Part shown: one piece after another, positions 4,707 through 20,407 of the stretch
Position numbering within the stretch: position 1 is the stretch's first letter
Layout: each line of letters begins with the position of its first letter
Assembly: GCA_963815195.1 (NCBI GenBank)
Contig: CAWFGE010000015.1
Span: 256,001-320,000, forward strand
Direction of reading: 5' to 3'
DNA: 64,000 nucleotides
DNA from: an uncultured Planctomycetaceae bacterium
GTDB taxonomy: Bacteria; Planctomycetota; Planctomycetia; Planctomycetales; Planctomycetaceae
Notes under the pieces: generated by a model
Databases searched by the model: none
The model's input: only the letters and a program-made list of their open reading frames with translations
What the model was told of the DNA's origin: nothing
Translations under genes and position numbers: made by a program

Positions 4707-4732
4707 AAAAGCGGAGAGAGGGGGACTCGAAC
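4707..4732 (-). repeat. att core, left copy (tRNA-Ser 3'-end-like fragment)
   Basis: aaaagcggagagagggggactcgaac; reverse complement GTTCGAGTCCCCCTCTCTCCGC matches a T-arm/acceptor end; 21 of 22 bp identical to 17910-17931. Confidence 0.8.
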
Positions 4733-4773
4733 AACCCTCGAAAACAAGGGGGAAACGGCCAATTCTTCCCCAG

Positions 4774-4793
4774 GCGGTGCAAAATCCGGTGCA
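4774..4793 (+). repeat. Putative integrase arm-type site GCGGTGCAAAATCCGGTGCA (copy 1)
   Basis: Identical 20-mer at 17737-17756 and 17781-17800. Confidence 0.7.
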
Positions 4794-5158
4794 CTTAATG
4801 CAGAAACGACCCCGATGGATGCCGATTTGCAAACCCTCATCGACCGATGGCCGGCCCTTCCAGAATCGGCGAAAGCCCACATTTTGGAAATCGCTCTTTC
4901 GGTGGGGAATGGGGAATAGTGGATACGCCGCATTGTTTGATTGGTGATTTCTTTTCTGATTCCGATTGGAGAATCAATTTGCCTAAATTGCAATGTTTGA
5001 GCGATCCCAACTTTCAATTTGGTTTGCCGATCATGCTGACCATAAGCGGGCAACAAAAGCAAACCCGCTTCAGCAATTCAGGAGATTGCTCTTCCCCTCT
5101 GAAACCGACTCGGGACAATTTGGCGGGAAACCTTTTCGGTCAACATAAGCGGGTAAAA

Positions 5159-5589: not shown

Positions 5590-6027
5590 GTGGAAACGGC
5601 CGTTCCGCCAACCGACGGTGACGCTTTGCAACAAAATGCGACACTTCCGGCGCAGCAAGCGCGGGCGGTGGTTGGTTTGTTGGGCGGTTTGTCCATCACC
5701 GAGGCGGCGAAAGTGGCCGGTGTGAACCGTGCGACCGTGCATCGCTGGTTGAAGGACGATTTTTCGTTTCAGGCGGCCGTGAATCGGGGCCGGCGAGAGT
5801 TACGGGAGGCTTTGCAAAGCCGGCTGATGAACTTGGCAGAGGATGCGATTTCTTGTCTGGAGCAGGCCGTGCAGGCCGGCGATGGAAAAACCGCCTTGGC
5901 CCTTCTGAAAGGTTTGGGATTCCTAGGTGGGAAACCCATTTCCATTCCAAGCGGCGATCCTGACGAGTTGCGGGACCAGCACGAAGAGCAAGTCGCCCGA
6001 CGCAAATTGCTTTCGGTCCGCCGCTGA
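5590..6027 (+). CDS. HTH protein, phBC6A51/small-terminase-like
   Basis: GLSITEAAKVAGVNRATVHRWLKDD-SFQAAV followed by helical oligomerisation-like region. Confidence 0.7.
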   Translation: METAVPPTDGDALQQNATLPAQQARAVVGLLGGLSITEAAKVAGVNRATVHRWLKDDFSFQAAVNRGRRELREALQSRLMNLAEDAISCLEQAVQAGDGKTALALLKGLGFLGGKPISIPSGDPDELRDQHEEQVARRKLLSVRR

Positions 6028-6108: not shown

Positions 6109-8547
6109 GTGATGGCGGTTGATAAGAAATCTCTCAGCGAACAGGACATTTGCCCCCAGTTCATCACGCCCACGATCCAATCTTCGGGTTGGGATTTGGC
6201 AACCCAAATCCGCTTTGAAGTGACTTTCACGGCGGGGCAGGTAATTGTCAAAGGGAAGTCCATCAAGCGGGGCAAGGGCAAGCGGGCGGATTATGTGCTG
6301 TTCTACCGCGAGAATCTCCCGCTGGCCGTCGTGGAAGCCAAGGACAACAAGCACACCATCGGTGCGGGGATGCAGCAAGCCCTCGTTTATGCCGATGGGG
6401 ATGCCCTGGATTTGCCTTTCGTTTTCAGTTCCAACGGCGATGGGTTTCTGTTTCACGACAAAACCCAAACCGGCGGGAAACTCGAAACGGAAATCGCCCT
6501 CGATGCGTTTCCCTCGCCCGATGAACTTTGGGAACGCTATCTGCAAGTGGAAGGGATCTAAAACCCGAAGTCCGCCCGCTGGTGACGAATGATTTCTATT
6601 CCGATGGCACCGACAAGAAGCCCCGCTATTACCAATTGAACGCCATCAACCGCACCATCGAAGCCATCGCCAAAGGGCAACAGCGGGTGTTGTTGGTGAT
6701 GGCCACCGGGACCGGGAAAACCTACACCGCGTTTCAAATCATTTGGCGATTGTGGAAACACGGACTCAAAAAGCGGATTCTGTTCCTGGCGGATCGGAAC
6801 ATCCTGGTCGATCAAACCCGCGTGAACGATTTCAAACCCTTCGGCGGGGCAATGACCAAGATCACCAACCGCACCATCGACAAATCGTTTGAAATCTATT
6901 TGAGCCTGTACCAAGCCATCACCGGGACCGAAGCGGAGAAGAACATCTACAGGGAGTTCTCCCGCGAGTTCTTCGATTTGATCGTGGTCGATGAATGCCA
7001 TCGGGGAAGCGCCAAAGAGGATTCCCAGTGGCGGGAGATTCTGGAATACTTCAATCACGCCACGCAAATCGGGCTGACGGCCACGCCCAAGGAAACCGAA
7101 TACGTTTCCAATATCCATTACTTCGGCGAGCCGGTTTACACCTATTCGCTCAAGCAAGGCATTCAGGATGGTTATCTGGCCCCGTATCGCGTGATTCGGA
7201 TTGATCTGGATAAAGACCTCGAAGGCTGGCGGCCTCCGCAGGGACATACCGACAAATTCGGCGAACTGGTGGAAGATCGGCAATACAACCAAAAAGACAT
7301 GGACCGCACGTTGGTGCTAGAGAAACGCACCGAACTGGTGGCCAAAAAGGTGACGGAGTTTCTCAAAGGGACCGACCGCTATGCCAAAACCATCGTGTTT
7401 TGCGAGGACATCGAACACGCCGAGCGGATGCGGCAAGCCCTGGTCAACGAGAACGCCGACCTCGCCGCCAAGAACCGCAAATATGTGATGCGGATCACGG
7501 GTGATAATAAAGAAGGCAAAGCCGAGTTGGATAACTTCATCGACCCGGAAAGCATTTATCCGGTGATCGTCACCACGTCCCAACTGCTTTCCACCGGCGT
7601 GGATGCCCAGACTTGCAAGCTGATCGTGCTGGACAAAACGCATTCAATCCATGACGGAATTCAAGCAAATCATCGGGCGGGGCACGCGGATCAAGGAAGA
7701 CTACGACAAGTTCTATTTCACCATCATGGATTTCAAAAAGGCCACCGAACATTTTGCCGACCCGAAATTCGACGGCCCGCCCATTTCCGTTTACATCCCC
7801 AAACCCGATGACCCCGTCGTTCCGCCCGATGAGGAGGATGAGAACCCCGAAGGCGGCGAATCGGGAGAACCCGACGGCGGGGAAGTGATTGACGGCGATC
7901 CCGCCCCGCCCGGCGGCGATGAGGGGGAGGACACCGGCAACGGGGGCGGGGGCGGAGGCGGAACCGGCAAGCGAACGAAAATCTACGTCGATAACGTGGA
8001 AGTCTTCGTCAAGGCCGAGCGGGTGCAATACTTCGATCCCCAAACCGGCAAACTGATGACCGAATCCCTCAAGGACTTCACCAAAAAACGGGTGGGGCTG
8101 GAATATGCTTCGCTGGATGATTTCCTGCAAACGTGGAACCAAGCCGAGCAGAAACAGGCCATCATTGATGAACTCGCCGAGCGGGGCGTGTTCTTCGATG
8201 CCCTCGCCGAGGATGTGGGAAAAGACTTCGATCCCTTCGACCTGGTTTGCCACGTCGCCTTCGATCAACCGCCGCTCACGCGGAAGGAACGGGCCGAGAA
8301 CGTCAAAAAGCGGAACTATTTTACGAAGTACGGCGAACAGGCCCGCGCGGTCTTATCCGCCCTCTTGGAAAAATACGCCGACGGCGGTTTCGAGGAACTC
8401 GACGACTTAAAGGAATTGAACACCTTGACCGTCGATCCGTTTTCCCAAATGGGAACCCTCGTCGAAATCGTCAACGCTTTCGGCGGAAAGGAAAAGTACC
8501 TTGAAGCTCTCCGCGAATTGGAGACAATCCTCTATCAAGCCGTTTGA
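6109..8547 (+). CDS. hsdR: Type I restriction endonuclease subunit R (EcoAI/EcoEI type), split by two frameshifts (~6560, ~7640)
   Basis: RADYVL...VVEAK nuclease motif, [38 protein letters not shown]-terminal [22 protein letters not shown]. Confidence 0.93.
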
Positions 8548-8576
8548 ACCGAACCCACCCAGGAAAAGATTTCCCA

Positions 8577-10022
8577 ATGGTCAGCAGCGCCCAAATCAAA
8601 TCCATTCAAGACACCATGCGGAAAGATGTGGGCGTGGATGGCGATGCCCAACGCATCGGGCAGATGGTGTGGTTGATCTTTCTCAAAGTCTTCGACGACC
8701 GCGAGCAGGAACACGAACTCTTAAACCCCAAGTACAAATCGCCCATTCCCGAAAAGCTCCGCTGGCGGAATTGGGCGGCGGACCCCGAAGGCATCACCGG
8801 CGATCCGCTTTTGGATTTCGTCAATCTGGAATTGTTCCCCACCCTCAAAAATCTTTCCGTGGGAAACGACAAGCTCAAAAAGGTGGTCCACGATGCCTTC
8901 GAGGATGCCTACAACTACATGAAGTCCGGCCAACTGCTCCGCCAGGTGATCAATCGGCTGAATGAGGATTTCGACTTCAACCGCTCGGAAGATCGGCACA
9001 TCTTCGGCGACATTTACGAGCAAATCCTCCGCGATCTGCAATCCGCCGGGAACGCGGGCGAGTATTACACCCCCAGGGCCGTCACGCAGTTCATGGTCGA
9101 GATGGTCAATCCCCAACTCGGCGAGAAAATCCTCGATCCCGCTTGCGGCACGGGCGGGTTTTTAACCTGCGCCATCGAGCATATTCGCAAAAACCAGGTC
9201 AAAACGCCCGCCGATGAGGAGAAGCTGCAAGCCTCGCTCAATGGCGTGGAGAAAAAGCAACTCCCGCATCTGTTGTGCGTGACGAACATGCTGTTGCATC
9301 GCGTGGATGTGCCCGCGAACATCCTGCACGATAACACCTTGAACCGTCCACTGACCGATTACGGACCCAAAGACCGCGTGGATGTGATCCTCACCAACCC
9401 GCCCTTCGGCGGCCAAGAGGAAGATGGCATCGAGAACAATTTTCCGTCCGCCTTCCGTACCCGCGAAACCGCCGACTTGTTCTTGGTCTTGATCCTCAGG
9501 CTACTCAAAGACGGCGGCCGCGCGGCGATTGTGCTGCCCGATGGTACGTTGTTCGGCGAAGGCGTCAAAACCCGCATCAAGGAAAAGCTGCTCGAAGAGT
9601 GCAACCTGCACACCATCGTGCGTTTGCCCAATGGCGTGTTTAGCCCGTACACCGGCATCAAGACAAACCTGCTCTTCTTCGAGAAAGGCACGCCCACCAA
9701 GCACATCTGGTATTACGAGCATCCCTATCCCGAGGGTCAAAAGTCCTACAACAAAACCAACCCCATCAAGATCGAAGAGTTCGCCCCCGAAAAGAAATGG
9801 TGGAAGAAGCGGAAGGAAACCGAATACGCCTGGAAAGTCTCCGCCCTAGACATCAAAGCCGGCGGTTACAATCTCGACCGCAAAAACCCCCACGCCCAAG
9901 ACCAAGGCCCCGGCGACCCGGAGGAACTCTTGGCCCAGTTCCATTCTCTGGAAAGCCAAATCCAAGCCACCCGAGACCAACTCCGCCAAGAACTCCAAGC
10001 CGCCCTGGACCGCCCCCAATGA
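8577..10022 (+). CDS. hsdM: Type I R-M N6-adenine methyltransferase subunit M
   Basis: GEYYTPR, DPACGTGGFL (motif I), NPPF (motif IV), VFSPYTGIKTNLLFF. Confidence 0.96.
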   Translation: MVSSAQIKSIQDTMRKDVGVDGDAQRIGQMVWLIFLKVFDDREQEHELLNPKYKSPIPEKLRWRNWAADPEGITGDPLLDFVNLELFPTLKNLSVGNDKLKKVVHDAFEDAYNYMKSGQLLRQVINRLNEDFDFNRSEDRHIFGDIYEQILRDLQSAGNAGEYYTPRAVTQFMVEMVNPQLGEKILDPACGTGGFLTCAIEHIRKNQVKTPADEEKLQASLNGVEKKQLPHLLCVTNMLLHRVDVPANILHDNTLNRPLTDYGPKDRVDVILTNPPFGGQEEDGIENNFPSAFRTRETADLFLVLILRLLKDGGRAAIVLPDGTLFGEGVKTRIKEKLLEECNLHTIVRLPNGVFSPYTGIKTNLLFFEKGTPTKHIWYYEHPYPEGQKSYNKTNPIKIEEFAPEKKWWKKRKETEYAWKVSALDIKAGGYNLDRKNPHAQDQGPGDPEELLAQFHSLESQIQATRDQLRQELQAALDRPQ

Positions 10023-11774
10023 CCCCCGCCGATTTCCTAAACCACTTCGCCCCGCTCACGGACACCGCAGGCGGCGTGCAGAAACTCCGAAACCTCATCC
10101 TGCAACTGGCCGTCCAAGGCAAACTGGTCGAGCAAGATCCCAACGATGAACCGGCGGCAGCGATCTTCTGAAAAGAATTAGAGAACGAAAAATCGCAATT
10201 GTTCGCGAAAGGGGAGATTCGGAAGCCGGCGAAGACTTCCACGCAGTCAATTCCAATGGTTCAGCGAACCCAAAAGCGGTTGGGCCAGGACCATGATGGG
10301 AATGTTCGTCATTAGAACTGATGTTCAGGGCAGCATCTCAAACCGGAAGCCTATAACGAAGACAGGCAAAGGCCATCCCGTATTCAACCGGTCCGGCTGA
10401 TTTGTGGATGACCGTTCATCCCACTGCAAGTCGATGGACTACACGAAACACGATCTATTGCTAAGCAAGGGGATATGTTTAGTTACGGTCAAAGGTGCAA
10501 CGATTGGAAAAACAACATATCTTGTGAACCGCGCAACGGCGTTTACAGCCGACGATTGATGGCCGCCCGTTCGATCTAGTCGTTCCGATTTTCTGCAATC
10601 TTGTTTTGAAGTCCACCTACGACATATTCCAAAGTCGGGCGTGGGTATTGCAATTCGCCGGTATCGGTACGCAGACGAAATCCTGAGCACTCACGATTTG
10701 GACTTCCACCCCTCGCCGAGCAGCGGCGGATTGTGGCGAAGGTGGATGAGTTGATGCGGTTGTGCGATGAGTTGGAAACTCGGCAGCAACCGAGCAGCGG
10801 GCGGTGCGGGTGCGGATGAGCGCGGCGGCTTTGGACCGCTTGACGAACGCGGCGGACCCCACCGAGTTCGCCCCGGCCTGGCAACGCCTCAACACCCACT
10901 TCGACACCCTCTTCGCCCGCCCCGAATCCCTCGCCCAACTCCGCCAAACCCTCCTCCAACTCGCCGTCATGGGCAAACTCGTCGAACAAGACCCAGACGA
11001 CGAACCGGCGGCGGAACTTATCAACGCATCAAACACCAAAGGGCAGAATGGTTAAACGCCAAGGTAATCAAGAAACCGAAACCGCTCTCGCAGATTACGC
11101 AGGGCGACATTCAAATGCTGCCTGCTGGATGGACTGCCGAACGGTTGGGAAACATCATTGATGCCCGTTTTTCGCTTTCCTACGGCGTTCTGGTTCCTGG
11201 GCCCGACATCTCTGATGGTATTCCATTTGTCCGGGTCTAAAGATTTGGACATCAAACCGAAAATTAAACCCGCGAAAACAATTGACCGGGCAATCGATGC
11301 AAAGTACCAGCTGAACTCGCCTAGTCGGTCGGAGAGATTTTACTTGGCGTTGTTGGAAGCATTGGAAAACTAGGAATTGCACCCAAGTCATGGGCTGGGT
11401 AAGCGAACATTGCCCGTGCTGTCTGTCGAATGACATGCCCGCTCAACAAGTCGAGCGAGACTTCTTGCTCTTGGTCCTCCAAAGCGCTCAGATTCAAAGC
11501 CATTTCAAGTCATCAACCCGGACACTTGCCCAACCAACGCTGAACATTGGCAATGATCGAAGAAACAGCCATTCCAATCCCCCCGCTTGCCGAGCAAAAA
11601 CGCATCGTCCAACGAGTGCAAGAACTGATGGCCCATTGCGATACCCTGGAAGCCCAACTCACCCGGCGGGAGGCTTCGGCGGACGAGTTGCTCGAAGCGA
11701 TGGTGGCGGCGATTCTGGCCGGTCGGGAGCCGCGTGCGGTCGGCAAACGGAACGGGCGGCAGCGGTCCGCATGA
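10019..11774 (+). pseudogene. hsdS: Type I R-M specificity subunit S, heavily frameshifted in both TRDs
   Basis: Two copies of LQLAV-GKLVEQDP-DEPAA (~10100, ~10955); PPLAEQ-RIV motifs (~10710, ~11580); multiple frame breaks. Confidence 0.88.
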
Positions 11775-12139
11775 ATGGGGAAAACGCTTCGGCCGCCAAC
11801 GCAGGCCCACCCAAACCAGGAAAGGCAACCCGATTGATGGCCAAGAAACGTTTCAACTACATCGTGACCGTTTCGTTTCAGATGCAGTTTTCCTTCCCGG
11901 AATCGGAAGTCGAACAAAGCGACGAAGGGGCCGAGGGCGATATGTCCCCCACGGATGAAGCCTTGGAAGCCCTGGAAGAGGAACTCGCCGAATTCCTAGG
12001 CCAAAACTACGGGGGCATTTGCAATATGGAAGCCTGGGCAGACTTTGATGAATTGCTGAGCACATACGAAGAATGAGCCGAAACAGCCCAACCGGCCCGG
12101 CGGACGAGTTGCTCGAAGCGATGGTGGCGGCGATTCTGG
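11677..12139 (+). repeat. 42-bp perfect direct repeat of the hsdS 3' end (11677-11718 and 12098-12139)
   Basis: cggcggacgagttgctcgaagcgatggtggcggcgattctgg present twice. Confidence 0.9.
11837..12076 (+). CDS. Small, very acidic hypothetical protein (79 aa)
   Basis: MAKKRFNY...ELLSTYEE; 20 Asp/Glu; lies between the 42-bp repeats. Confidence 0.6.
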   Translation: MAKKRFNYIVTVSFQMQFSFPESEVEQSDEGAEGDMSPTDEALEALEEELAEFLGQNYGGICNMEAWADFDELLSTYEE

Positions 12140-12627
12140 AACGCCGCGAGCGAGAAACGGACGGGCAACAAAACAGACGAGCGTCGGCTCGAACAAAATA
12201 AGGGGAATCCATGCCTGCCGAAAACCCAACCACGAAAGAGGCCCCCTTCTGCATCTCTGCCACGGAATCTCTTTTGCTTGGAATTGCGTTTGAGAACTAC
12301 GGATTGGAACGCGGAGGCCCCCGCGACGGTGGGAACGCGGCGGAACTGGGGGATTATAGGGGGCGTGTGGAATCCCCCATGATCCCAGCATAACGGGACG
12401 GAGTCCGCGTAGGATTGATGAACTCTGCCTCAAAATGCTTGGGGGATTAGGGGGGGGGGGTAGAAATCCAAATCAGACACAAACGCGGCTAGGGCGACGG
12501 CCCGAAAACCTGACCTGACAGGCCCGCCGCGTTTCTTCTTGAATCAGGGACCACGTAATCAGGACCGTGGCGATGCCAAAACCCGATCTAATTTGCCCGA
12601 CGTGTGGTGGCGATCTAGAGCCTGCGG

Positions 12628-13369: not shown

Positions 13370-13534
13370 ATGGCTGATGACTTATTAGAGCGGATTCCCC
13401 GCCCCGAGGAAATCAAACGGGAATTGGCCCCCTATTTGCGGGCCGTCGATTTGCTCAAAAAGCTGTTGAAGCTTGCCGAATATCGCGACCGCATGGAAGG
13501 AAATCGGGAGCGAAAAGGGGGGTCAAATGATTGA
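13370..13534 (+). CDS. Small hypothetical protein
   Basis: ggagga RBS before ATG; overlaps the next gene's start. Confidence 0.6.
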   Translation: MADDLLERIPRPEEIKRELAPYLRAVDLLKKLLKLAEYRDRMEGNRERKGGSND

Positions 13535-13754
13535 GCCTCTTCTCCTCGACAAGCTGGAAACGGCCCGGCGGCTGGGCATTAGCGTGCGCGGCCTTGACCG
13601 ACTCATCCGCGATCCTGATAACCCGCTTCCCTACATTCCGGTTGGGCGACTCATTAAATTCCGGCCGGCCGACGTACAGCGGTGGTTAGAGGGGAAGGTG
13701 ACGACCGCGCATCCGCCGCGGCAGGTATTGAAAAGCAAAGGGGGTGCCGAGTGA
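13527..13754 (+). CDS. Excisionase/AlpA-like HTH_17 DNA-binding protein
   Basis: LLDKLETARRLGISVRGLDRLI...LPYIPVGRLIKFRPADVQRWLE. Confidence 0.85.
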   Translation: MIEPLLLDKLETARRLGISVRGLDRLIRDPDNPLPYIPVGRLIKFRPADVQRWLEGKVTTAHPPRQVLKSKGGAE

Positions 13755-16294
13755 CCGACACCCCCCAAAAGATTGTCCTTTTTGATTCTATACCCGATGC
13801 CCTCAAAAGTCTGCCCCAATGGGTGCTCTGGAGAGGTGTGGAACGCGACGGAGAGAAAACCAAACTCCCATTCCGAACGAACAACCGACCTGCGCAAAGC
13901 AACAATCCCAAAACTTGGGCTGCATTTTCTGCGGTCGCCCTTCGGATTGAGCAGTTACAGATTCCCGAACTGCGATTGCCTAACGCCATTCCCTACGATG
14001 GTCCCGGATTCGTCTTCTCGAAGGATGATCCGTTTGTGGGAATCGACCTCGACGGTTGCCGAGATCCTCAAACGGGAGAGATGGCCGAGTGGGCGGTTGA
14101 GATAATCCAACGATTTGACACCTACGCCGAAATCTCGCCATCGGAAACGGGTGTCAAAATCTTCGCGAAAGGGAATTGGCCTTTCGATCGGGGGAAGAAA
14201 GTCACGGTCGCTGTTCAGCCCGTTTGCGAGAAAAGGCCCGGCATCGAAGTCTATGCCCACCGTCGCTATTTCGCCGTTACAGGTTGGCAAGTAGAAAGCC
14301 GGCCCGGATCGGTAGAGGATTGCCAAGCGGCACTCGATTGGTTGGTGGGAAAGTATTTTGCACAACAGGCCAAAGTGCAGAGCACTCCCCAAACTCATCC
14401 TAAGAAGGTGCAGGAGCGGGCGAGAAACTACCTCGCCAAGCTTCCTCCCGCAATCAGCGGACAACGGGGGCATGATGCGACCTATCACGCGGCTTGCGTC
14501 TTGGTGCAGGGGTTTGACTTGGGGGCAGATGATGCATTCCTATTGTTGAGTGAGTGGAGTGCGACTTGCCAACCGCCTTGGTCGGAAGCCGAACTCCGGC
14601 ACAAGATTGAAGACGCCTCCCAGGAACCCGGCGAACGAGGATATTTGCTGAAAAGTTCGCGTTCCAATACTCCGACGGAAAGCGGTAACGGTAACGGAAG
14701 CCCTCAAAATGATCCGTTTTCCGACCTTCCGTTACCGTTACCGCCCCCAGAAATGGAATTCTCGCCTTTTCCTACGGACGAATTGCCCGAACCGATTTCC
14801 CGATTTGTGAAGGAGGGAGCAATAGCACTGGGGTGCGATGAAAGCTACATCGCCCTCCCCCTGTTGGCCGTGCTCGCCTCCGCCGTTGGAAATACGCGGC
14901 GAATCAAACTAAAGAATTCCTGGTGTGAACCTTGCGTTTTTTGGGCGGTTATTATCGGCGAGTCCGGAACGCTCAAAAGCCCGGCAATGGATCTCGCCTT
15001 GGAGGTTTTGAACTCGCTTCAAGACCAGGCGTTCCGGGATTACGAGGAAGCTTTTCGGAAACATGAGCTTTCGCTCATAAACCATGAAGCCGCACTCAAA
15101 GAGTGGAAAACCCAGGGGAGAAAACGGTTAGAACCTCCCCCCGAATCTCCGGAAGAACCCATTGCGGAGCGATTTGTCTGCGAAGATACCACGGTCGAAG
15201 CGATTGCGGTGCTCTTGCTGAATCAACCCCGTGGGATATTGATGAAACGGGATGAGCTATCCGGTTGGATTAACTCATTCGACGCCTATAAATCGGCACG
15301 CGGAGCCGATGTGGCCCACTGGTTGAGCATGCATCGTGCTGGCTCATTGACGGTCGACCGAAAGACCGGTCGCAAAGTGATTCGTGTTCCCCGGTCTGCC
15401 GTCTCTCTCACGGGCGGCGTGCAGCCGAAAACCTTGAAAGCCGCATTGGGCGGACGCTATCAGGGAGATGGCCCCGAGGCGATGGAAGACGTTTCCGGGG
15501 AACATTGGGAAAATGGACTGGCGGCACGGTTGCTGGTTGCGATGCCTCCCCGCAAACCAAAACATTGGACAGAAGACGACCTTTCCGAAGAAACAAAGAA
15601 AACGCTGGAAACTATAATTAAAACGCTATTCCAACTCGATTTTCAGGCTGGTGACGATGGTGAATTGCTTCCGGTGGATGTCCCCCTCTCGCTTCAAGCG
15701 AAATCGGTTTGGATTCGTTTTTACAACGAACACGCCCGCGAACAAACGGAGATGAGCGGCAATCTCGCGGCGGCATGGTCGAAACTGGAAGGCTACGCGG
15801 CTCGCTTCGCCTTGCTCATCCATCTTATACGCCAAGCTACGAATGACTCCACTTTGGTCAACCCAGAGTTGATAGATGGGCAAAGCGTAAGATCCGGCAT
15901 CGCCTTATCGCGGTGGTTCGGTGATGAGGCCGCGCGGGTTTATTGCAGCTTTCAGAAATCCGGGGAAGATTCCGATTCCGTAAAACGACGCCACTTGCTT
16001 CGTGTCATCAGCGAACACAGTGGCCGGATTACCGTACGCGAGTTGATGCAAGCCTCCCGCAATTACCGCGAGAGCGCGGATACTGCAGAATCCGCGCTCA
16101 ATGAATTGAGAGCGGCCGAGCTAGGCTCATGGAACGTCGTAAAGACCAAAGGCCGGTCAAGACGCGAATTTTGTCTCCACGATGCCGAATCAGGCCCCGA
16201 CAGGCCACAGGAACAAGCCGAGCATTCTTCATCCCAGGATGTTGACTCCGGTGCCTCGCCTGAGTCAGAGAATGACGAGTGGGGGACGATATGA
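13751..16294 (+). CDS. AEP primase-polymerase fused to a DUF3987 (YfjI-like) helicase domain
   Basis: FVGIDLDGC, YAEISPSETGVKIF, IEVY--RYFAVTG; PriCT-like region; FPTDELP, GESGTLKSP, DELSGW, GLAARLL. Confidence 0.85.
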   Translation: MTDTPQKIVLFDSIPDALKSLPQWVLWRGVERDGEKTKLPFRTNNRPAQSNNPKTWAAFSAVALRIEQLQIPELRLPNAIPYDGPGFVFSKDDPFVGIDLDGCRDPQTGEMAEWAVEIIQRFDTYAEISPSETGVKIFAKGNWPFDRGKKVTVAVQPVCEKRPGIEVYAHRRYFAVTGWQVESRPGSVEDCQAALDWLVGKYFAQQAKVQSTPQTHPKKVQERARNYLAKLPPAISGQRGHDATYHAACVLVQGFDLGADDAFLLLSEWSATCQPPWSEAELRHKIEDASQEPGERGYLLKSSRSNTPTESGNGNGSPQNDPFSDLPLPLPPPEMEFSPFPTDELPEPISRFVKEGAIALGCDESYIALPLLAVLASAVGNTRRIKLKNSWCEPCVFWAVIIGESGTLKSPAMDLALEVLNSLQDQAFRDYEEAFRKHELSLINHEAALKEWKTQGRKRLEPPPESPEEPIAERFVCEDTTVEAIAVLLLNQPRGILMKRDELSGWINSFDAYKSARGADVAHWLSMHRAGSLTVDRKTGRKVIRVPRSAVSLTGGVQPKTLKAALGGRYQGDGPEAMEDVSGEHWENGLAARLLVAMPPRKPKHWTEDDLSEETKKTLETIIKTLFQLDFQAGDDGELLPVDVPLSLQAKSVWIRFYNEHAREQTEMSGNLAAAWSKLEGYAARFALLIHLIRQATNDSTLVNPELIDGQSVRSGIALSRWFGDEAARVYCSFQKSGEDSDSVKRRHLLRVISEHSGRITVRELMQASRNYRESADTAESALNELRAAELGSWNVVKTKGRSRREFCLHDAESGPDRPQEQAEHSSSQDVDSGASPESENDEWGTI

Positions 16295-16584
16295 CTCTCC
16301 CGCAATTGTTGGCCGAATTGGCCCGGTTGGGGGTGCGGTTGGAGGCCGATGGGGAGCGGTTGCGGTACGCTCCCCGCGCGGCCCTGACTCCCGAATTGGC
16401 CGAGCCGCTGCGGGAGCACAAGCCCGCGTTGTTGGCCTATCTGCGGACCGGGAAAATCATCTTCGACGCCCAAACCGCAACCGCGGCCGATGTGCGGGCG
16501 GCCCTCGACTTTTTCAATCTGTCTCGCATCGGGAATTCCGATGTTGTACTCTCACAGAATCAGGAACCTTTTCAGGAAAGGTAA
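16291..16584 (+). CDS. TubC N-terminal docking-domain-like small protein
   Basis: LLAELARLGVRLEADGERLRYAP--ALTPEL---LREHKPALLAYL. Confidence 0.7.
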   Translation: MTLPQLLAELARLGVRLEADGERLRYAPRAALTPELAEPLREHKPALLAYLRTGKIIFDAQTATAADVRAALDFFNLSRIGNSDVVLSQNQEPFQER

Positions 16585-16592
16585 ATCCCACA

Positions 16593-17954
16593 ATGGCAAG
16601 CATCACGAAGCAGCCCAACGGCCGGCGGACGATTCAGTTTACTGGTCCCGACGGTCGGCGGTTTTCCATCCGCCTGGGAAAAGTCACTCAGAGATTGGCC
16701 GAGCAAGTGAAGTTCCGGGTGGAACAACTCTTGGCTCCGAAGTTGGCTGGTCAAGCCCTCGATGCCGATACCGCCCGTTGGCTGGGCGAGATTGACGATT
16801 CTCTACATTCCAAGTTGGCCAAGGTGGGTTTGGTCGAATCCCGCGAACAAACGGCGGTGCAGGCCCTTGGGGCATTCCTTGAAGATTATGTGACCCGGCG
16901 AATCGACGTGAAGCCCGCAACCCAGGAAGTTTGGCGGCAAGTGATTCTGAATCTGACGAATCATTTTGGATACGATCGCGATTTGGCGAGCATCAATGAA
17001 GGCCATGCCGACGATTTCAAAATGTTCCTCATTTCTGAAAAACTGGCCCCCACCACAATTCACAAGCGGCTGCAATTCGCCCGGATGTTTTTCCGAGCGG
17101 CCAAAAAGCGAAAACTCATCTCAGAGAATCCATTTGCGGAAACGTCCGCCCCGGCGGGATCCTCATCAGCCCGGCAGCATTTCATCACGTTGGAGGACAC
17201 GGAGAAACTGTTATCGGTCGCGAATCCGACATGGCGAACGATCATCGGCCTCTGTCGGTTCGGTGGCCTACGCTGTCCCTCTGAAGTGCTTTCGCTCCGA
17301 TGGGAGGATGTGTTGTGGGATTCTCAGAAAATCGTGGTGACCTCGCCGAAGACAGAACACCACGCCGGCAAGGAAAACCGAATCATCCCGCTATTCCCCG
17401 AATTGTTGCCGATCCTGTTGGAAGCCTCCGAACTGGCCGACGATGGTGCGGAATACGTTGTCGGTGGAAATTATCGGGAAGCGGCCCAAGGCCCGTCAGG
17501 CTGGCGAAACAGCAATCTCCGAACGCAATTCGGGCGGATCGTGAAACGGGCGGGATTGTCCCCCTGGCCGCGGCTGTTTCACAATCTCCGCGCATCCCGC
17601 GAAACAGAATTGGTCAAGGAACATCCGATTCACGTGGTCACAAAGTGGCTGGGGAACACGCCCACGATCGCAACCAAGCATTATTTGCAAGTGACGGATG
17701 CCGACTTCGAGAGGGCAACCAGCCGGGAATCAAAAAGCGGTGCAAAATCCGGTGCATCATCTGCACCGCCTGGGGAAAAAGCGGTGCAAAATCCGGTGCA
17801 GACAGTGTACGCCACGTCTCGGCAAAAATCGTCTGAGTTGTTCCAACCCGATGGGAACTCAACAGTTCTGCCGAGTCTTGGCGAATCGTGCCGAGCAATG
17901 ACTGTACAAAAAAGCGGAGAGAGGGGGATTCTCATTAGGACTTGTCGTAAGTGA
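16593..17954 (+). CDS. int: Tyrosine recombinase/integrase; 3' end runs through the right att core
   Basis: GGLRCPSE (R), SPKTE (K), FHNLRAS (HxxR), WLGNT, KHYLQ (Y). Confidence 0.93.
   Translation: MASITKQPNGRRTIQFTGPDGRRFSIRLGKVTQRLAEQVKFRVEQLLAPKLAGQALDADTARWLGEIDDSLHSKLAKVGLVESREQTAVQALGAFLEDYVTRRIDVKPATQEVWRQVILNLTNHFGYDRDLASINEGHADDFKMFLISEKLAPTTIHKRLQFARMFFRAAKKRKLISENPFAETSAPAGSSSARQHFITLEDTEKLLSVANPTWRTIIGLCRFGGLRCPSEVLSLRWEDVLWDSQKIVVTSPKTEHHAGKENRIIPLFPELLPILLEASELADDGAEYVVGGNYREAAQGPSGWRNSNLRTQFGRIVKRAGLSPWPRLFHNLRASRETELVKEHPIHVVTKWLGNTPTIATKHYLQVTDADFERATSRESKSGAKSGASSAPPGEKAVQNPVQTVYATSRQKSSELFQPDGNSTVLPSLGESCRAMTVQKSGERGILIRTCRK
17737..17800 (+). repeat. Two further arm-type 20-mers with an inverted partial copy between them
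   Basis: gcggtgcaaaatccggtgca at 17737 and 17781; tgcaccgcctggggaa (17762-17777) is the reverse complement of 4766-4781. Confidence 0.75.
17910..17931 (-). repeat. att core, right copy (tRNA-Ser 3'-end-like fragment)
   Basis: aaaagcggagagagggggattc, direct repeat of 4707-4728. Confidence 0.8.
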
Positions 17955-18124
17955 TTGTCAAATCAGCACTTCCGGTTGCAACTCCTTGAGACTCTTGGAT
18001 TTCCGGTTTGTCATTTGAGTTCATCTGTAGTCAGGGTTTCTCAGGAATAGTCATTCGGATTGGCACATTGTGCCAATCCGAAATTTGGCTTCGGTGCCTT
18101 CATCAGACCATGGAGGTACTGAAC

Positions 18125-20407
18125 ATGGTGATTGATACTGGGCCTTTTTTTCAAGGCCGCAGAAGACGCAAGCACGGATTGCGAGGAGCGATTTATGCTC
18201 GCTATTCCACCCGCTTCCAGCATTCGATTGATGACCAAGTCCGCGAGGACCGCGAGTGGGCCGACCGCAATGGAATCGAGGTGGTCCGAGTTTTTACGGA
18301 TAAGGCCGAGAAAGGACGCAGCACACGGCGGAAGGGACTCAAGGCGTTACAGCAGGCGTTGGAAAACGACGAGATTGATGTCGTGATCGTTTTCACCACG
18401 AACCGGTTGTATCGCAAGATGTACCAGTCGCTGATGTTTGTGGAAGAAGAAATCGTCGACCGTGGCAAACGCTGCGTGTTTGTGCGGTCGGGGATCGATA
18501 CGGCCGATTCGGACGATTGGCGGCAACGGCTCCAACTTCATGCCCTAATTGATGAATTTCTGGTGCAGACCATTGCCAAACACGTGCATGCCGCTCACGA
18601 GGGCTTGCTCTTGCAAATTCGCGTGTTCGGCACGCTCACCTTTGGTTATACGGGAGAAGAAATTCCCGGCGTCACCACGCGGTTAGGACGCCCGGCTCGC
18701 CGGCTGATCATCGATCCGGAAACCAAAAAATGGGTCAAGAAGATCTTTCGCTGGTTTACGCAGTTCGAGTTGAGCTTGGCGGAAATCATTCGTCGCCTCA
18801 ATGCCAAAGGAGCTCCGTTGCCTCCGCGATCCACAACCAAGCGTTGGACTCGTTTAGCGGTCCGCGGAGTGCTCACCAATGCCCGTTACATTGGCTGTTG
18901 GGCCTACGGTTCCACGAAAGCTGTTTGGCTCAACAAAAAGTCTTACAGCCGCCAAGTGCCGCGGGACGCCCCTCTTCGCGAAATTACAATCGAAGATTTG
19001 CGCATCATCGATGATGTGACTTGGGCTAAAGCTCAAGAGCGTTTGCACAATTTGCAGCAAAACGCGGGTCGACACCCCAAGGATGGGGACCGGAAGTCCC
19101 GGCCTCGGGTTCTGAACAATCTGATCTATTGTGAAAAACACCATGAGAAGGCACTTCACGTGGGTAACGCCTACGGCAAATACATGTTTTGCAGTGTTTG
19201 CCGGGATTCCGCGGAACGGTTCCTATTTTCTCAACTTCCCCGAAAGTTGGCTTTGGAACTGATATGCGACCGATTGGCGGCGTTGATCCGCGAGGACGAA
19301 GACCTTATCCAAAAATGTATCACCGCCGCGCAAGAAACCGTGGAGGAATTTGAGCGACCCGATCCGAGTCGGCTTGCCGATCTTAACCGGCAACTCGTGC
19401 GTTTGAACGGGAACATCCAGTTTATCCTGGATGCTCCCGGTGAAACTGATGAAGACCAAGACGAAAACCACAAACGTCTTACCGCCCTGCGTCGCGAACG
19501 AGCGACGGTTCAACGCGAGATTGCCGAGCAGGAGGAACTGGCCCAACGCCCGCTCGATATTCCGAATCCAGACGAAATTCGCGAGCAGTTGGACCAGTTT
19601 GCCGAGATTCTCCAGCGGGCCGCCGAGAGCGACGATCCGGAAGAACTCGCGGCCGCAAGACAGATCATCCGCTTGATCACAGGCGGACGAATCATCGCTT
19701 CCCAATGTGGGGAGCGAAAACAGAAGCGAGGCTGGGTGCGGTTGCGGTTTTCCGTCAATCTCCTTCGCCTCATCAGCATTCCGAATGATGTTTCGTCGAA
19801 CGGCGAACTGGAAGTTGAGATTGACGTTCTGCCGCCGGACACGACCGAACACGAATCGGAGCGGGTGAAGAAGCTTTATGATGCCGGATTGGAGATTCGG
19901 GAAATCGCGAATCAAACCGGTTGGCATCGGAATCGCGTGACCAAACTACTCAAATATTGGTTTGAATCGCGCGGGCTCGAAATGCCGAACAACCGCGCCC
20001 GGCGGCATCAGTTGCCAAAAAAGCAAGAGGATCTTCCGGTCTACCAACAGATTGCCGATGAAGTGCATTCGTTGTGGTTCGACGGGCTGTCGGATTCCGA
20101 AATGGGCCGCCGGTTTGGGTGCAGTGATACCACCGTGCAAAAGGCTTTTGTTTGGTGGCACACGTCCCGGAATCTGCCGGTTCCGAACAAGGAAAGCCGC
20201 CGTCAAGCTTTGCGGGAACGGGTGAAACGGCTTTCTGACCGGAGGGTCCCTCTTAAGAAGATTGCGAAAGACGTGGGCGTTTCCGACGTCACGGTCCGCA
20301 AGTTGTTGAAGGAATGGTATGCCGACCAAGGGCTTTCCATGCCGGACGGTCGGACGACGCGACACCAGCCGCCCAAGCCGGGGGACAACACCTCCACAAT
20401 GGCATAG
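18125..20407 (+). CDS. Large serine recombinase with C-terminal tandem HTH extension (start uncertain)
   Basis: AIYARYST (catalytic Ser), SIDDQ, RKGL, NRLYR, FGY, L-NARYIG, RIIDDVTW--AQ, zinc-ribbon, coiled coil, three HTH-like repeats. Confidence 0.92.
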   Translation: MVIDTGPFFQGRRRRKHGLRGAIYARYSTRFQHSIDDQVREDREWADRNGIEVVRVFTDKAEKGRSTRRKGLKALQQALENDEIDVVIVFTTNRLYRKMYQSLMFVEEEIVDRGKRCVFVRSGIDTADSDDWRQRLQLHALIDEFLVQTIAKHVHAAHEGLLLQIRVFGTLTFGYTGEEIPGVTTRLGRPARRLIIDPETKKWVKKIFRWFTQFELSLAEIIRRLNAKGAPLPPRSTTKRWTRLAVRGVLTNARYIGCWAYGSTKAVWLNKKSYSRQVPRDAPLREITIEDLRIIDDVTWAKAQERLHNLQQNAGRHPKDGDRKSRPRVLNNLIYCEKHHEKALHVGNAYGKYMFCSVCRDSAERFLFSQLPRKLALELICDRLAALIREDEDLIQKCITAAQETVEEFERPDPSRLADLNRQLVRLNGNIQFILDAPGETDEDQDENHKRLTALRRERATVQREIAEQEELAQRPLDIPNPDEIREQLDQFAEILQRAAESDDPEELAAARQIIRLITGGRIIASQCGERKQKRGWVRLRFSVNLLRLISIPNDVSSNGELEVEIDVLPPDTTEHESERVKKLYDAGLEIREIANQTGWHRNRVTKLLKYWFESRGLEMPNNRARRHQLPKKQEDLPVYQQIADEVHSLWFDGLSDSEMGRRFGCSDTTVQKAFVWWHTSRNLPVPNKESRRQALRERVKRLSDRRVPLKKIAKDVGVSDVTVRKLLKEWYADQGLSMPDGRTTRHQPPKPGDNTSTMA

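Follow-up and report, generated by a model that had tools for sequence, protein, structure and literature searches.

The closest precedent for the integrase described here is that of Myxococcus phage Mx8 (IntP). In the published account of this phage, attP lies within int, integration gives the gene a new 3' end and the enzyme an altered specificity, and a similar principle is described for Mx9 (PMC6070905); according to the Islander report, the integrases of Mx8 and SSV reach past attP (PMC4383910). The SSV-type suicidal integrases (SSV1, pTN3, and pT26-2) also have att in int, target tRNA genes, and are reported to have their gene split on integration, which detaches the catalytic Int(C) from Int(N) and leaves two inactive halves (PMC8371274). 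In mycobacteriophage integration-dependent immunity, attP again lies within an open reading frame (ORF), integration removes a C-terminal segment, and tandem prophages occur; there, it is the repressor gene that is split, and the protein sheds an ssrA-like degradation tag (PMC9934374). Islander-type tRNA islands (T-stem/J subsite) carry a full tRNA at one end and a 3' fragment at the other, together with arm repeats, tandem insertion, and a T-stem/acceptor identity block; in the standard model of such islands, int is kept whole.

Here we analyze a 64,000-nucleotide stretch of DNA (the window) from an uncultured Planctomycetaceae bacterium (GCA_963815195.1, contig CAWFGE010000015.1), in which a tyrosine integrase gene crosses the attachment site of its own island. 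Coordinates are window positions unless a contig is named, and all window features given are on the plus strand. As in Mx8, attP falls within the integrase ORF, past the codons for the catalytic domain; the Mx8 genome record shows an antisense T-arm-like stretch at about codon 416 of 533, followed by about 110 residues. However, the two integrases are barely alignable (best E value, 0.13), and our tail profile scores 2.6 bits on Mx8, at a position outside the Mx8 tail, so we find no homology between the tails. Mx8 is a full phage, but the element in the window is satellite-like, an island of 13 kb, and its type of tail is a defined 30-residue hairpin common to two integrase subfamilies and no fewer than 14 tRNA targets.

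A preliminary description of the window had offered both Mx8 and SSV1 as comparisons. The former is apt, and SSV1 is the poorer match because the catalytic domain stays whole here. We rejected an SSV-like identity since the SAM-like and catalytic domains are both present in the integrated ORF, and the window island loses a distal tail only. In contrast to integration-dependent immunity, the split gene is an integrase rather than a repressor, and the lost part is a folded hairpin with no ssrA-like Ala-Ala end. In contrast to the standard tRNA-island model, the ORF in the window family is selected to cross both arm and core. The accessible portions of PMC12884075 and PMC11610982 hold nothing on this integrase/tail family, and our search of the openly accessible literature listed no description of the design in Planctomycetota.

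RESULTS

The integrase gene contains the attachment core of its island

An ORF and domain search defined the integrated form of the tyrosine integrase at 16593..17954 (453 amino acids). Pfam places a SAM-like domain at residues 94 to 182 and a catalytic domain at residues 197 to 369, with all five conserved residues of the R-H-R-H-Y set present (R227, H330, R333, H363, and Y364). A linker of about 70 residues separates the catalytic domain from the att core, which falls at residues 440 to 445, inside the ORF and 3' of the catalytic domain, and the protein ends ...QKSGERG-ILIRTCRK*. This right core (17910..17928) is an exact 19-bp match to the left core at the far end of the island (4707..4725) and is common to the island and an adjoining 80-kb segment. 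The core matches the 3' end of tRNA-Ser(GGA) in reverse complement, and int reads that end antisense; when up to two mismatches were allowed, a 15-base core pattern had 2 matches in the window versus 0.25 expected. An 18-bp arm-type repeat is present in three copies (4776, 17739, and 17783) versus 0.06 expected. The left-arm copy (4776..4793), a putative Int-binding site, overlaps the linker codons of the tail, and the other two (17739-17756 and 17783-17800) lie in the linker codons of the integrase.

Across the left core, the integrase frame continues into an orphan 3' part of int (4725..4919; 64 codons plus stop), which lacks a conserved start codon of its own and ends ...SVGNGE* at 4919. 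Joining the two ends in silico yields a 509-amino-acid integrase (445 + 64). These results bear out the preliminary claims that an att site lies within the integrase gene and that the left core carries its frame on to 4919. The further claim, that excision exchanges an 8-amino-acid tail for a 64-amino-acid extension, holds in silico for the extension, but the 8-amino-acid tail (ILIRTCRK*; 17928..17954) is incidental to this genome and derives from a second insertion. Its codons belong to the end of the 80-kb segment, which ruled out a host or tRNA origin for them. Where the intact tRNA adjoins, the same frame extends about 30 residues further, so the 8-residue length is an accident of this genome. 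The right junction itself is real: an assembled contig from public run X2 covers 17763-17990 with zero differences. Neither a circle joint nor an empty-site joint was seen in four low-depth contig sets, and no sigma-70-like promoter was found near the tail.

The island is part of a tandem insertion at tRNA-Ser(GGA)

No tRNA gene was found within the 64-kb window. The intact tRNA-Ser(GGA) gene (C15 c353878-353965) is on the same contig, to the right of the second core and 79,964 bp from it, with no further core between them at up to three mismatches. The locus is thus a tandem in the order intact tRNA, 80-kb segment, core, 13.2-kb island, core, host DNA. The 80-kb segment (window 17929-20407; G000:C15:273932-353877) starts with a large serine recombinase (18128..20407), a neighbor outside the island, at the near end of this second segment. 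The first 208 bp of the segment are 91% identical to an end on contig C8 that adjoins a tRNA-Ser(CGA) fragment, and the segment probably represents a second family of tRNA-Ser-targeting elements.

Among 24 element end pairs, an identity block at the T-stem/acceptor junction is invariant (one mismatch overall at positions -8 to 0), while T-loop positions vary. The block is intact at both window cores; at the right site, the semiconserved CGAA beside it has been replaced. With the T-loop side of the right site changed in this way by the second insertion, the island copy may excise poorly until that segment leaves.

The 13.2-kb segment between the cores is bounded by a direct repeat of a tRNA 3' end and carries arm repeats, which, together with the R-H-R-H-Y residues, place it among tRNA-integrated tyrosine-integrase islands. 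By its genes, it is a satellite-like integrative element: it encodes a helix-turn-helix (HTH) protein that weakly resembles small terminase subunits (5590..6027), type I restriction-modification cargo (hsdR in pieces, hsdM, and probable hsdS pieces; 6109..11373), an excisionase-like HTH_17 protein that is a candidate directionality factor (13530..13754), a primase-helicase (primase N-terminal part and DUF3987; 13682..16294), and, between the latter and int, a small TubC_N-like protein resembling N-terminal docking domains (16279..16584). An int-alpA RNA motif (Rfam RF02996, 50.1 bits) is present at 12482..12549. Extra single bases at 6539, 6556, 7640, and 12681 are missing from contigs of run X1; the hsdR frameshifts, several of which are absent from the X1 contigs, look like assembly errors. 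An 82-bp duplication (11677-11758 and 12098-12179) follows the restriction-modification genes.

Related integrases read through the tRNA in frame

Relatives come from Planctomycetota, and we analyzed 138 integrase loci (33 + 105). After setting aside 1 locus without a C terminus, 13 ending within 300 bases, 20 without a downstream tRNA, and 2 with a tRNA but no T-arm motif found (one of which, L130, stops early), 102 distinct loci were kept for the read-through count. In 96 of these 102, no stop interrupts the integrase frame between the catalytic domain and the tRNA 3' end (median, 158 nt), whereas the other two same-strand frames are open in 32 and 26 and the three reverse frames in 29, 41, and 50. 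Fourteen kinds of tRNA are targeted, and each of the three possible reading frames of the T arm is used (72, 22, and 8 loci). An antisense-tRNA-like peptide, recognized by a loose pattern, likewise ends 105 of the 120 top protein homologs. One integrase relative (L115) runs into a four-tRNA cluster (Leu, Glu, Tyr, and Leu) in Limnoglobus roseus.

The far-end tail stays in the integrase frame and is under protein-level selection

By DNA repeat alone, we located the second att copy in 26 elements. A hairpin tail lies within 400 bases of that copy in 16 of them, and all 16 tails follow the integrase frame through a link free of stops; the profile used to find them drew in part on these tails, yet each of the three frames was scored with it. 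T-arm frames 0, 1, and 2 account for 1, 10, and 5 of these cases, respectively. The remaining 10 elements have no detectable hairpin: 2 are chance repeats, 2 have integrases that stop before att and carry no tail (L042 and L048), 2 have a stop just after att (L032 and L040), and 4 have a shorter or different in-frame extension. The preliminary description had proposed looking in homologous islands for early stops or random frame relationships, and its reading survived on both counts, given the 96 open loci and the 16 in-frame tails. We observed in-frame extensions of 50 to 77 codons at L089, L038, L045, and L046, in which a different or half-length helical end replaces the hairpin.

Of 60 genomes searched, 49 contained tail matches, 218 in all, and 130 of these matches were taken as loci. 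Matching tails to integrase ends across contigs added 22 integrases, 18 in frame and 4 out. The out-of-frame cases are L088, L097, L101 (two rows), and L102; the tail at L088 probably belongs to another element at the same tRNA, and the L097 integrase stops early. Counting a tRNA-Ala exception from the window's own genome, 34 of 39 are in frame (P = 1.5e-5 against a null of 0.545, which allows for frame skew), the significance of which is overstated, as related elements are not independent.

We counted stops in the 84 of 132 distinct tails that had a T-arm motif and enough flank. The tail frame contains 18 stops in 3,591 codons inside att versus 72 in 2,940 codons outside, and the other two frames contain 80 and 131 stops in 3,507 codons inside att. 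In-frame ATG codons are not enriched (17/84 tails, versus 30/84 and 20/84 in the other frames). With no such enrichment and a frame tied to int, we rejected the tail as a stand-alone gene. Entropies at the three codon positions of 88 tail cores are 1.12/0.83/1.57, the first invariant Leu of the tail uses all six Leu codons, and dN/dS over 80 close pairs is about 0.23, in cores chosen by a protein pattern, which lowers dN. Together, these results show that the frame of the tail is conserved and that the tail is under selection at the protein level.

A compact helical hairpin occurs with two distant integrase subfamilies

The conserved part of the tail is a helical hairpin (4821..4910) with the consensus D-P-x-L-x-x-L-x-x-A-W-P-x-L-P-x-x-x-R-x-x-I-L. 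In a 40-amino-acid model, helices are predicted at residues 9 to 20 and 23 to 38 (core pLDDT, 94 to 95). A homodimer prediction scored 0.32 against a mark of 0.42. Profile searching found 10,414 representatives at 50% identity, the best 150 of which are 38 to 234 amino acids long, and the hairpin is present in 31 of 151 genomes sampled across Planctomycetota. The Atlas clusters that match the tail are unnamed and, where the taxon is known, mostly from Planctomycetota. No Pfam family is common to more than 1 of 21 tail members, PHROGs gave no match for the window tail, a PDB sequence search with the tail gave a best E value of 0.34, and Foldseek with the hairpin returned nothing at an E value of ≤0.001. 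The best match in the VIA structural search (Z score, 4.7) reflects a common two-helix arrangement, with small dimerization domains among the weak rows. GenBank phages yielded no close relative of the integrase or the tail.

Two database proteins (P0006 and P0055) consist of an integrase, a tRNA-fragment peptide, and the hairpin. Fusions are also found in 5 of 25 viral loci, representing three distinct elements (L151/L152, L154/L155, and L165), with neither a tRNA nor a second junction copy in the available DNA; L152 carries a phage head gene. These relatives, viral and database alike, thus carry the longer integrase expected of a free form. Elsewhere among the viral loci, the tail of L161 is out of frame and L168 to L170 have no tail. 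In the viral contigs, a single-protein scan found no relative and an alignment scan did. No long protein that includes the window tail came out of one weak search; the fusions came to light by other routes. A chromosomal contig (L187; G322:C9) carries a C-terminal integrase remnant whose reading runs through a tRNA-Val fragment directly into a hairpin tail; this is a tandem junction or a stranded attP, which restores the fusion while integrated.

The window's own genome (G000) holds seven more hairpin tails (C5:4783-4969, C12:1025706, C7:105721, C8:287584, C1:6161, C13:1093609, and C15:120759), most of them just inside tRNA fragments (Val, Ser, Thr, Cys, Leu, and Ala). The 4.9-kb element on C5 (tRNA-Val; integrase 70% identical to that of the window) shares the in-frame layout. 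Two other loci deviate, in an assembly that has single-base errors: the two ends of the tRNA-Ala pair are in different frames, the out-of-frame end containing a homopolymer run, and at tRNA-Cys the integrase runs into a stop within the tRNA copy.

The same genome encodes a second integrase subfamily, which aligns to the window integrase over only 72 amino acids (29%) and whose copied tRNA segment reaches the anticodon arm. We found 67 matches to it in 34 genomes and examined 30 loci. A downstream tRNA is present at 22 of the 30, and 18 of these 22 read into it, versus 3 and 2 in the other frames. Where the far-end att match is at least 31 nt, all nine integrases (10/10 tails) are in frame with the same hairpin; of three weak att matches of 14 to 17 bases, one is in frame and two are out. 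Because the same hairpin is matched in frame in this subfamily, one hairpin serves two distant integrase subfamilies and two tRNA subsites.

DISCUSSION

Integration removes a selected protein domain from this integrase, which excision would restore, and the catalytic domain stays whole throughout. We are close to certain that the tail swap is real and under selection. The one reading that would empty it of protein meaning, namely, that the read-through and the frame match arise as side effects of arm DNA conservation, draws on the overlap between arm-type repeats and linker codons but is largely refuted by a frame match seen in all three tRNA frames and at both att subsites, by stop depletion that steps exactly at att, and by variation that is synonymous, and we give it next to no credence.

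As to what the swap accomplishes, we lean, by no great distance, toward a role for the hairpin in favoring integration, such that its loss would bias the resident enzyme to stay put or excise. With the attachment site in int, downstream of an intact catalytic domain, the excised circle would encode the 509-residue integrase with its hairpin and the inserted copy the shorter form; the state of the DNA would in this way set the form of the enzyme. Crossover would occur at the tRNA T-stem/acceptor junction. On a linker of about 100 residues, the hairpin could bridge integrase protomers or bind a partner in the attP × attB complex, and the tail-less enzyme, weaker in integration, would carry out attL × attR recombination together with the island's excisionase-like protein. 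That same protein counts against a tail switch, which is then not needed for directionality, as do linkers that double as arm-site DNA, which limits their variation. Since the Mx8 tail is not homologous, the role we suggest for the hairpin is borrowed by analogy. We put forward more tentatively, as something we would not quite expect to hold, a broader proposal: that a portable, undescribed hairpin (>10,000 clusters), lost on integration and gained on excision by barely related subfamilies, is a built-in directionality factor, making a phylum-wide recombination-state switch that works by gene fusion and not through a separate protein.

The swap might instead set the amount of integrase, not its specificity, with the hairpin stabilizing the circle form or the tRNA-derived end destabilizing the resident form. 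State-dependent degradation tags are reported for attP-split mycobacterial prophage repressors (PMC9934374), and the ends of the 96 integrated forms are suggestive: they stop a median of 9 amino acids past the T arm (within 20 amino acids in 84 of 96, versus 50 and 48 in the other frames), mostly on nonpolar residues (L, 22; V, 17; F, 8; P, 8; and I, 5). We nonetheless consider this explanation unlikely. The tRNA sequence dictates those ends; the tails have no ssrA-like Ala-Ala end (11 of the 150 best representatives end in Ala, and the window tail ends GNGE); and a folded hairpin with an invariant Trp and Leu exceeds what a degron needs.

Less probable again, in our view, is that the hairpin docks an element-encoded factor, a helper-phage protein, or a host factor and so links the circle integrase to replication or packaging rather than to the direction of strand exchange. 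A portable interaction module would suit two subfamilies that share the hairpin while aligning so poorly, and the island has satellite-like genes (the primase-helicase, the TubC_N-like docking domain, and the small-terminase-like HTH protein), but our analysis turned up no partner.

We give very little weight to the possibility that the tail is an ordinary integrase C terminus needed for full activity, so that the enzyme is disabled by integration and the element trapped in place, without any regulated switch. Archaeal suicidal integrases are reported to act in this manner (PMC8371274), and in one relative (L037), the hairpin directly follows the catalytic domain with no att between them. Against this, integration leaves intact the entire catalytic domain and about 70 residues beyond it, hairpin-less relatives with intact ends exist (L038, L045, and L046), and the truncated Mx8 enzyme is reported to be active (PMC6070905).

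Under our preferred reading, in which the hairpin favors integration, as under its rivals, the tail swap itself has clear antecedents. Published accounts of Mx8 (and Mx9) and of the archaeal suicidal integrases describe integrases that are altered by the recombination they carry out. What is new relative to Mx8 is a conserved tail domain and the wide spread of an Mx8-like tail swap, which prevails across two large integrase subfamilies from a single phylum, both with the same compact, conserved tail. Database sequences of these integrases are mostly the truncated form ending in an antisense-tRNA peptide (105/120 by the loose pattern), and thousands of short "hypothetical proteins" beside tRNA fragments are explained as orphan integrase tails. 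Because the tail is compact, deletable, and swappable, C-terminal control of tyrosine-integrase directionality becomes directly testable, and such tails could guide the design of one-way integration tools for planctomycetes.
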